Source: Alphaproteobacteria bacterium (lineage in GTDB: Bacteria > Pseudomonadota > Alphaproteobacteria > UBA9219 > RFNS01). From it: DNA of 64,000 bases. The notes below the pieces were generated by a model, which ran no database searches, was not told the origin of the DNA, and was given only the letters and a program-made list of their open reading frames with translations. The translations under genes and the position numbers were made by a program. Positions 9,193 to 9,381 of the stretch are shown one piece after another. The stretch lies in the NCBI GenBank assembly GCA_009927055.1, contig RFNS01000177.1, positions 29,794 through 93,793 of the forward strand, read 5' to 3'. Each line of letters starts with the position of its first letter. The stretch's first letter is position 1.

Positions 9193-9219
9193 ATTTGGTG
9201 ATCCCGGTCGGGTTTGAAC
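9193..9219. repeat. 27-bp direct repeat duplicating the 3' end of tRNA-Lys (second copy 9304..9330) - att-site-like footprint
   Basis: ATTTGGTGATCCCGGTCGGGTTTGAAC occurs at 9193..9219 and 9304..9330; the second copy is the tRNA-Lys 3' 24 nt plus 3 nt. Confidence 0.6.
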
Positions 9220-9265
9220 TGAATGGCTTGGTTGGCGAGTGTACGAGCCTACCAAACATTCATCC

Positions 9266-9290
9266 CCGCGAAGGCGGGGACCTGCGGCAA
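9266..9290. repeat. GC hairpin CCCCGCGAAGGCGGGG (member of CCYCGCGAAGGCGGGG palindrome family; also at 42912..42935)
   Basis: Perfect 6-bp stem with GAAG loop; near-identical motif TACCCTCGCGAAGGCGGGGGC at 42912..42935. Confidence 0.45.
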
Positions 9291-9306
9291 GACGCATGCC
9301 CAAATT

Positions 9307-9381
9307 TGGTGATCCCGGTCGGGTTTGAACCGACGGCCCGCTGATTAAGAGTCAGCTGCTCTACCACTGAGCTACGGGACC
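9307..9381 (-). tRNA. tRNA-Lys (anticodon CUU), CCA encoded
   Basis: Reverse complement GGTCCCGTAGCTCAGTGGTAGAGCAGCTGACTCTTAATCAGCGGGCCGTCGGTTCAAACCCGACCGGGATCACCA; D-loop AGTGGTA, anticodon loop CUCUUAA, T-loop TTCAAAC. Confidence 0.85.

Follow-up and report, generated by a model that had tools for sequence, protein, structure and literature searches.

Does a tRNA gene whose 3' end is repeated a short distance downstream, with only non-coding DNA in between, record the former integration of a mobile element, and if so, how did the element come to be reduced to so little? This question is raised by the tRNA-Lys(CTT) locus of an uncultured freshwater alphaproteobacterium, considered here within a window of 64,000 nucleotides (the whole 64-kb stretch of DNA that was analysed, positions 29,794 to 93,793 of contig RFNS01000177.1, assembly GCA_009927055.1). 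A preliminary description of the locus had reported a 27-mer occurring at the tRNA-Lys 3' end and again beyond an 84-bp segment carrying a GC hairpin. Both copies are indeed exact, but the 27-mer is not purely a tRNA end, since it overshoots the end of the gene by 3 nt; the 84-bp segment and its GC hairpin, TCCCCGCGAAGGCGGGGA, were found as described (Table 1).

The tRNA-Lys(CTT) gene itself is intact and reads, in the tRNA sense, GGTCCCG-TA-GCTC-AGTGGTA-GAGC-A-GCTGA-CTCTTAA-TCAGC-GGGCC-GTCGG-TTCAAAC-CCGAC-CGGGATC-A-CCA. The 27-bp block (ATTTGGTGATCCCGGTCGGGTTTGAAC) comprises the last 24 nt of this gene and 3 nt past it (AAT in the tRNA sense), i.e., G53, the T-loop, the 3' part of the T-stem, the 3' strand of the acceptor, the discriminator A73, the encoded CCA and the three additional nucleotides. 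The block of identity starts with G53, a single nucleotide before the 7-nt T-loop TTCAAAC, and ends 3 nt after CCA; at the T-loop boundary, the identity of the repeat is lost sharply. The 27-mer is present in exactly two copies in the 64-kb window, where no third copy was detected even with up to 3 mismatches allowed, and no match to it turned up in 100 dinucleotide-preserving shuffles of the sequence. The distal copy lies on the 3' side of the tRNA-Lys gene, 84 bp from the proximal one, and its left flank is identical to the left flank of the empty-site alleles described below. Taken alone, this displaced 3' fragment is called as a tRNA neither by ARAGORN nor by Rfam.

Table 1. Coordinates of the tRNA-Lys(CTT) locus, its surroundings and other features mentioned in the text (positions refer to the window, except those in the row headed L108)
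Feature	Position	Strand	Basis or remark
DUF1153 (SciP-like, HTH) gene	8030-8362	-	Pfam
tRNA-Gln(TTG)	8488-8562	-	ARAGORN
DUF1465 (RcdA-like) core gene, convergent with tRNA-Lys	8724..9182	+	Pfam PF07323, 3.8e-23
Distal 27-bp copy (attR-like; displaced tRNA 3' fragment on the original chromosomal flank)	9193..9219	.	Exact match
Spacer, the sole DNA between the repeats	9220..9303	.	84 bp, GC 0.595, no coding capacity
Hairpin A, 43-nt imperfect palindrome TGAATGGCTTGGTTGGC...GCCTACCAAACATTCA, abutting the distal repeat	9220..9262	.	Minimum-free-energy structures
Hairpin B, TCATCCCCGCGAAGGCGGGGAC, diverged member of the REP-like hairpin family of the window	9260..9281	.	Family pattern, 1 mismatch
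GC hairpin core TCCCCGCGAAGGCGGGGA (hairpin B region)	9263-9280
Hairpin C, short stem-loop TGCG GCAAGA CGCA	9283..9296	.	Minimum-free-energy structures; weak stem, missing from the centroid structure
tRNA-proximal 27-bp copy (attL-like)	9304..9330	.	Exact match
tRNA-Lys(CTT), intact, CCA encoded	9307..9381	-	ARAGORN; Rfam RF00005, 71.8 bits
Orphan ORF, 120 aa	9482-9844	+	GC 0.479, GC3 0.44 vs. window GC 0.542
REP-like family loci	1926-1947, 9260-9281, 11099-11120, 11179-11200(-), 45757-45778(-), 61988-62009(-), 62131-62152
Toxin-antitoxin modules, window	54693-55004, 56744-57133	-	Pfam labels
Toxin-antitoxin modules, L108	13072-13525, 15337-15576		Pfam labels

The spacer between the two copies (its halves being TGAATGGCTTGGTTGGCGAGTGTACGAGCC and CCTGCGGCAAGACGCATGCCCAA) is nearly all secondary structure, with three hairpins making up most of its length. 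Folded as DNA, it attains -22.7 kcal/mol vs. -12.5 ± 2.2 in shuffled versions (z -4.55), and none of the 200 shuffles folded as well. Outside the hairpin core, the spacer is unique within the window. A known RNA or a terminator was ruled out as its identity, since no Rfam covariance model recognized it (only the tRNA passed, the matches to the spacer having E > 5) and no terminator-like site was found in it; promoter-like sites were not found in the spacer either. A decayed copy of the tRNA was also ruled out, the similarity of the spacer to the tRNA body being not significant: its local alignment with tRNA nucleotides 1-52 scored 12, below the means obtained with shuffles (15.7) and with genomic controls (14.4), and the end-anchored alignment gave p ~0.16. 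The GC content of the spacer is host-like or higher (0.595 vs. 0.542 in the window) and one of its hairpins is of a host REP type, so nothing marks it as foreign DNA.

The hairpin in question (hairpin B) is related to a REP/REPIN-like intergenic family of the pattern (A)TGTCATTCCGGCG-N3-CGCCGGAATCCATGGAC, represented by seven loci in the window, with 12 strand-matches to the degenerate pattern against 0.75 expected. Hairpin B, likewise intergenic, matches TCATYCCSRCGNNNGYSGGRAT with 1 mismatch and is devoid of the TCCATGGAC tail. Although the spacer hairpin fits this family, no more than about 22 bp of the 84-bp spacer belong to it, and it leaves the duplication of the tRNA end unexplained. 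A 27-bp duplication is not known to accompany the insertion of REP and RAYT elements. Several further observations concern the family as such. Two inverted pairs are distinguishable among its members, one facing inward (11099/11179) and another facing outward (61988/62131), and the hairpin core also matches replicons of Novosphingobium (in 10 places), Tistrella, Azospirillum and Legionella as well as a Bradyrhizobium locus. Between the members of the outward-facing pair, an AT-rich segment harbors adjacent 20-bp direct repeats, ATTGGTTTTGTTCTGACCAT and ATTATTTTTGTTCTGACCAT (62023-62062), with a related third copy at 29552; these repeats could be a protein-binding site.

The genes around the locus belong to the chromosomal core. 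The stop codon of the DUF1465 gene, whose homologs are labelled “regulator of CtrA degradation” (RcdA) in JGI sources, is 10 bp before the distal repeat, and the gene constitutes the original downstream flank, outside the element. The flanking core genes include purF-cvpA-radA, the DUF1153 (SciP-like) and DUF1465 (RcdA-like) genes, a radical-SAM/DUF3463 gene (called hpnH), ppdK and a gene for a class II aminoacyl-tRNA synthetase (called proS). The tRNA-Gln gene, situated between two genes of the CtrA circuit (the SciP-like and the RcdA-like one), is a core gene, as are its neighbors, and none of them is island debris. The preliminary description had pointed to this tRNA and to low-GC orphan ORFs nearby; both are real, but the former is core and the latter is on the 5' side of tRNA-Lys, so they add nothing to the case. 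The ORF in question (9482-9844) is directly upstream of tRNA-Lys, outside the segment bounded by the repeats, and gene calls for it are present in all assemblies of the species. It belongs to no Pfam family, and a comparison with 5.8 billion proteins gave no homolog from outside the species. It is an orphan gene peculiar to the species or else foreign DNA.

Elsewhere in the window, a block of low GC content (26479-31519; GC 0.46-0.49) is embedded in a polysaccharide/glycosyltransferase cluster and includes genes for two proteins without a Pfam family, one of 317 aa and the other a multi-pass membrane protein of 952 aa. Near leuA and ssb, small toxin-antitoxin modules (a ParD antitoxin; BrnT/CopG-BrnA) are interspersed with housekeeping genes.

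Natural populations supplied further evidence. Contigs of the same species were retrieved from several freshwater metagenomes and MAGs by exact-protein look-up of the flanking genes. The allele with the structure identical to that of the window, referred to as occupied, was recovered in four assemblies (ERZ28577356, ERZ28575597, ERZ3460577 and ERZ27247967), which were made with different assemblers. Two further independent assemblies carry an empty-site allele: contig k127_110444 of ERZ937303 (L005) and RHBK01000305.1 of GCA_010031005.1 (L095). In the empty site, the rcdA stop codon is followed by 10 nt, a single 27-mer and the tRNA body; exactly 111 bp (27 + 84) are absent from it in comparison with the occupied allele, i.e., the spacer and one copy of the repeat. 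The tRNA-Lys gene is intact in both alleles. Outside the missing unit, the empty-site contigs are 99.9-100% identical to the window: L005 is 100% identical across the remaining 3.6 kb, and L095 differs by one mismatch apart from the absence of the 111 bp.

The presence or absence of the 111-bp unit is a real polymorphism, because the repeat is shorter than the final k-mers of the assemblers and both alleles recur independently. At position 8951, a SNP (A/G) separates two haplotypes among the occupied alleles, and it is to the A haplotype that both empty alleles belong. Since the occupied allele is found with either local haplotype, a secondary loss is the simplest view of the empty one; judging from this single SNP, on which the polarity rests, it probably arose by a recent precise loss following one gain. 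The preliminary description had proposed comparing strains for an element residing between the repeats. The comparison yielded an exact empty site in two assemblies but no larger insert: three flanking proteins, when looked up, led to the occupied or the empty allele only, and none of the contigs of the species showed a related full-length element or a tandem accretion. This population evidence, contrasting occupied and empty alleles from other metagenome assemblies, is what is new here.

It was also observed that breaks in the short-read contigs of the species tend to occur within the two tRNA genes or beside them: L093 starts at 9338, L094 ends at 9193 (the first base of the distal repeat), L102 ends within tRNA-Gln, and Logan contigs break at tRNA-Gln as well. 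These breaks may reflect the sharing of tRNA sequences among members of the community or, at 9193, the coexistence of both alleles in one sample.

The search for the enzyme, the cargo and the source of the element was less rewarding. No tyrosine-recombinase motif was found in the six frames of the 64-kb window, and Pfam revealed no integrase, transposase or phage domain in 20 ORFs of the window, the remaining ORFs being judged housekeeping by eye. Nor was an integrase encountered within approximately 10 kb to the right of the window, a region of housekeeping genes according to precomputed Pfam labels. Five exact scans of IMG/VR, with both junctions, the 24-nt core and two internal segments of the spacer, gave no match, and the 24-nt att core had none among 185,579 GTDB species genomes. 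With its two copies in the window and a core absent from IMG/VR and the GTDB genomes, the 27-mer is not a generic repeat, which, according to the preliminary description, would have spoken against the att reading. In JGI metagenomes, a 20-nt core matched six unrelated loci only (phage-like tRNA-Lys(TTT) clusters and a coding region), and BLAST of the spacer and the repeat against phage and plasmid collections gave only the generic hairpin core, among plasmids, and a single phage with an unrelated tRNA segment. The anticipated integrase with a matching attP was, hence, not found in the window and the ~10 kb to its right, nor was an attP donor found in the viral, GTDB and JGI collections.

The nearest relatives show no synteny at the tRNA-Lys locus and are too distant to compare: the closest HpnH proteins in GTDB share 71-74% identity and have no tRNA-Lys nearby, while the closest RcdA (DUF1465) homolog shares 73% identity and has entirely different neighbors.

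Taken together, the structure is probably an att-site pair left in tRNA-Lys(CTT) by a tyrosine-integrase element, which would have decayed to a gene-less remnant and may be lost by slippage or recombination. One copy of the repeat completes an intact tRNA and the other is situated on the 3' side together with the original flank; the block of identity begins at the T-loop boundary, a canonical sublocation of att sites; and a precise 111-bp empty site is present in two independent assemblies. Judging from this geometry, a collapsed island remnant, as suggested in the preliminary description, is the most likely origin; the geometry and the empty site lend the suggestion partial support, but no integrase, donor or larger insert accompanied them.

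The course of events may have been as follows. A tyrosine-integrase element would have integrated, with a 27-bp core, at the attB formed by tRNA-Lys(CTT)'s T-loop and 3' end, rebuilding the tRNA from its own 27-bp core and pushing the original 3' end downstream. Internal deletion would then have shrunk it to the 84 non-coding, hairpin-rich base pairs, removing the integrase and the cargo. Eventually, RecA-independent slippage or homologous recombination between the 27-bp repeats may have removed the 111 bp in part of the population, which would require no integrase. For direct repeats of 27 bp that are 84 bp apart, slippage and recombination are established routes of such deletion. Against this reading speak the failure to find an integrase between the repeats (the spacer being too short to encode one), in the window and in the ~10 kb to its right, as well as the negative search for a matching attP donor in IMG/VR, GTDB, JGI, phage and plasmid collections, the lack of a larger insert in the strains seen and the host-like spacer with its host-type REP hairpin; moreover, decay to two intact att copies and 84 bp needs a fortunate deletion. 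In short, the locus has the structure of an attL/attR pair, but neither the integrase nor the attP donor could be assigned to it.

Other routes to the same arrangement have been weighed. The endpoint of a deletion would likewise give a sharp junction beside a perfect 3' fragment, e.g., in a tandem tRNA-Lys(CTT) pair, if the 5' 51 nt of the downstream copy were taken and its 3' 24 nt left, with no mobile element involved; the empty allele would then stem from a further deletion between the repeats. We consider this course unlikely, even though it accords with the negative searches for an integrase and a donor, with the host-like spacer carrying a host REP hairpin and with the derived look of the empty allele, which the model needs. 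The start of the fragment exactly at the T-loop boundary is what an att core, and not a random deletion, predicts, and the identity running 3 nt past CCA before an abrupt stop is typical of attP/attB overlap. Furthermore, the spacer bears no detectable trace of the remainder of a second tRNA, and the search for related genomes gave none with such a pair. The exact presence or absence of the unit between genomes otherwise identical over kilobases, which implies that the 111-bp event is recent, lends itself to yet another interpretation, that of a live, non-autonomous mini-CIME of 111 bp inserted and excised at the tRNA-Lys attB by an integrase acting in trans from elsewhere in the genome or the community. 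The almost wholly structured spacer (see the z value above) would suit such a cassette, being similar to elements of the MITE or REP type and unlike a random deletion remnant. Still, neither the window nor any of the searched collections yielded the 84-bp unit a second time, and no integrase is known for it; the centers of attL and attR, 111 bp apart, would be very tightly spaced for arm-dependent tyrosine integrases, and the excised circle would measure merely 111 bp. Repeat slippage explains the loss without any enzyme, and the haplotype pattern needs one gain only. The mini-CIME is, therefore, quite improbable in our judgment, and slightly more so is its elaboration, in which the unit cycles at the T-loop att site and is kept because its hairpins insulate the rcdA-like gene and tRNA-Lys from each other. 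The circular, or attP-type, junction expected of the excised unit would read ...GACGCATGCCCAA-ATTTGGTGATCCCGGTCGGGTTTGAAC-TGAATGGCTTGG....

A different integration mechanism generating a long target duplication (staggered-cut fill-in, a Cas1/casposase-type reaction or aberrant break repair) could come to mind for a short and non-coding insert, all the more so since tRNA 3' ends serve as casposon targets and a target duplication of repeat length accompanies Cas1-type integration. It has very little to recommend it, however: known casposon duplications are about 14-15 bp long, the insert, at 84 bp, is too long for a spacer (about 30-40 bp) and too short for a casposon (kilobases), neither cas or casposase genes nor such terminal inverted repeats were seen, and the duplication corresponds to a canonical att core. 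Simple tandem duplication was rejected, the repeated part being only 27 of the 111 bp. Finally, the duplication or the empty site might have been mis-assembled around the short repeat, as could be suggested by some contigs with breaks in the tRNAs or at the repeat and its vicinity (e.g., L094 and L093). This least credible of the explanations was rejected too: different pipelines gave the occupied allele in identical form in four assemblies, while the empty one recurs in two, and the repeat, at 27 bp, is below the final k-mers (k127, k141), precluding its collapse or expansion; the breaks of Logan contigs at tRNA-Gln indicate, in turn, that such breaks reflect the sharing of tRNAs among species.

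Comparison with known systems places the decayed att pair among familiar structures. A recurrence of the tRNA end is reportedly known from tyrT of E. coli, where Egan and Landy in 1978 and Rossi et al. in 1981 are said to have described 178-bp repeats downstream of tRNA-Tyr, each with the last 19 nt of the tRNA, the entire 178-bp unit being reportedly repeated in tandem 3.14 times. There, as here, a 3'-terminal segment of the tRNA is repeated shortly downstream, within the likely 3' trailer, but in our case the 27-bp block alone is repeated and the 84 bp are unique. There is also a likeness to the att pair of the mycobacteriophage Ms6. Its attP/attB core of 26 bp spans tRNA-Ala from the T-loop to the 3' end, the 7-nt T-loop being the likely strand-exchange region (PMC1762012). 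In both cases, the repeat of the tRNA 3' end extends from the T-loop to or past CCA, one copy completes the functional tRNA, the displaced fragment is on the 3' side, the core is of similar length (27 bp here vs. 26 bp in Ms6) and the site is empty in other strains; the present locus is set apart by the lack of an integrase, of cargo and of an arm-type region of normal size, with only 84 bp between the cores. The T-loop is one of the classes of att sublocation within tRNA genes, along with the anticodon loop and the 3' end, distinguished by Williams (2002), as relayed in PMC2647930 and PMC9897764.

Fragments of the tRNA 3' end are a general product of element integration, in which they persist as attR scars and serve as a source of partial tRNA genes (PMC9897764). 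The distal copy agrees with this in being a non-functional 3' fragment beside the complete copy of the same tRNA gene; however, the published distance between the fragment and the gene is 9-23 kb, with the element in place, as compared with 84 bp here. A further category is that of CIMEs, which have kept attL and attR and lost the genes of integration and transfer (PMC5704250). The two perfect att-like copies at the tRNA 3' end with no gene between them may be viewed as such an end-point of element decay, and a new element could still land at either copy (accretion). On the other hand, the described CIMEs are kilobases long and are mobilised in cis by an incoming ICE, whereas the segment here has 84 bp and its descent from an ICE or IME is only putative.

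The locus is, hence, best filed as a decayed att scar, or a minimal CIME-like remnant, and is a further case of something well known. Real as it is, the feature is ordinary, and it is unusual only in its natural presence/absence polymorphism and its hairpin-only content. As for the latter, it may be speculated that, in the occupied allele, the three hairpins separate and possibly insulate tRNA-Lys and the rcdA-like gene, two convergent genes with just 13 nt between them in the empty allele.

With its two intact att cores and 84 bp between them, the locus gives a clean illustration, from nature, of what is probably the final stage of island decay. It demonstrates that such scars can be precisely erased in wild populations, so that an “empty” tRNA site is no proof of its never having been occupied. 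In practical terms, the 27-bp fragment should not be called as a tRNA by annotation pipelines. A further question opens only if the cassette proves actively mobile. For this uncultured freshwater alphaproteobacterium, the finding singles out tRNA-Lys(CTT) as a probable former site of integration, which may still be available.
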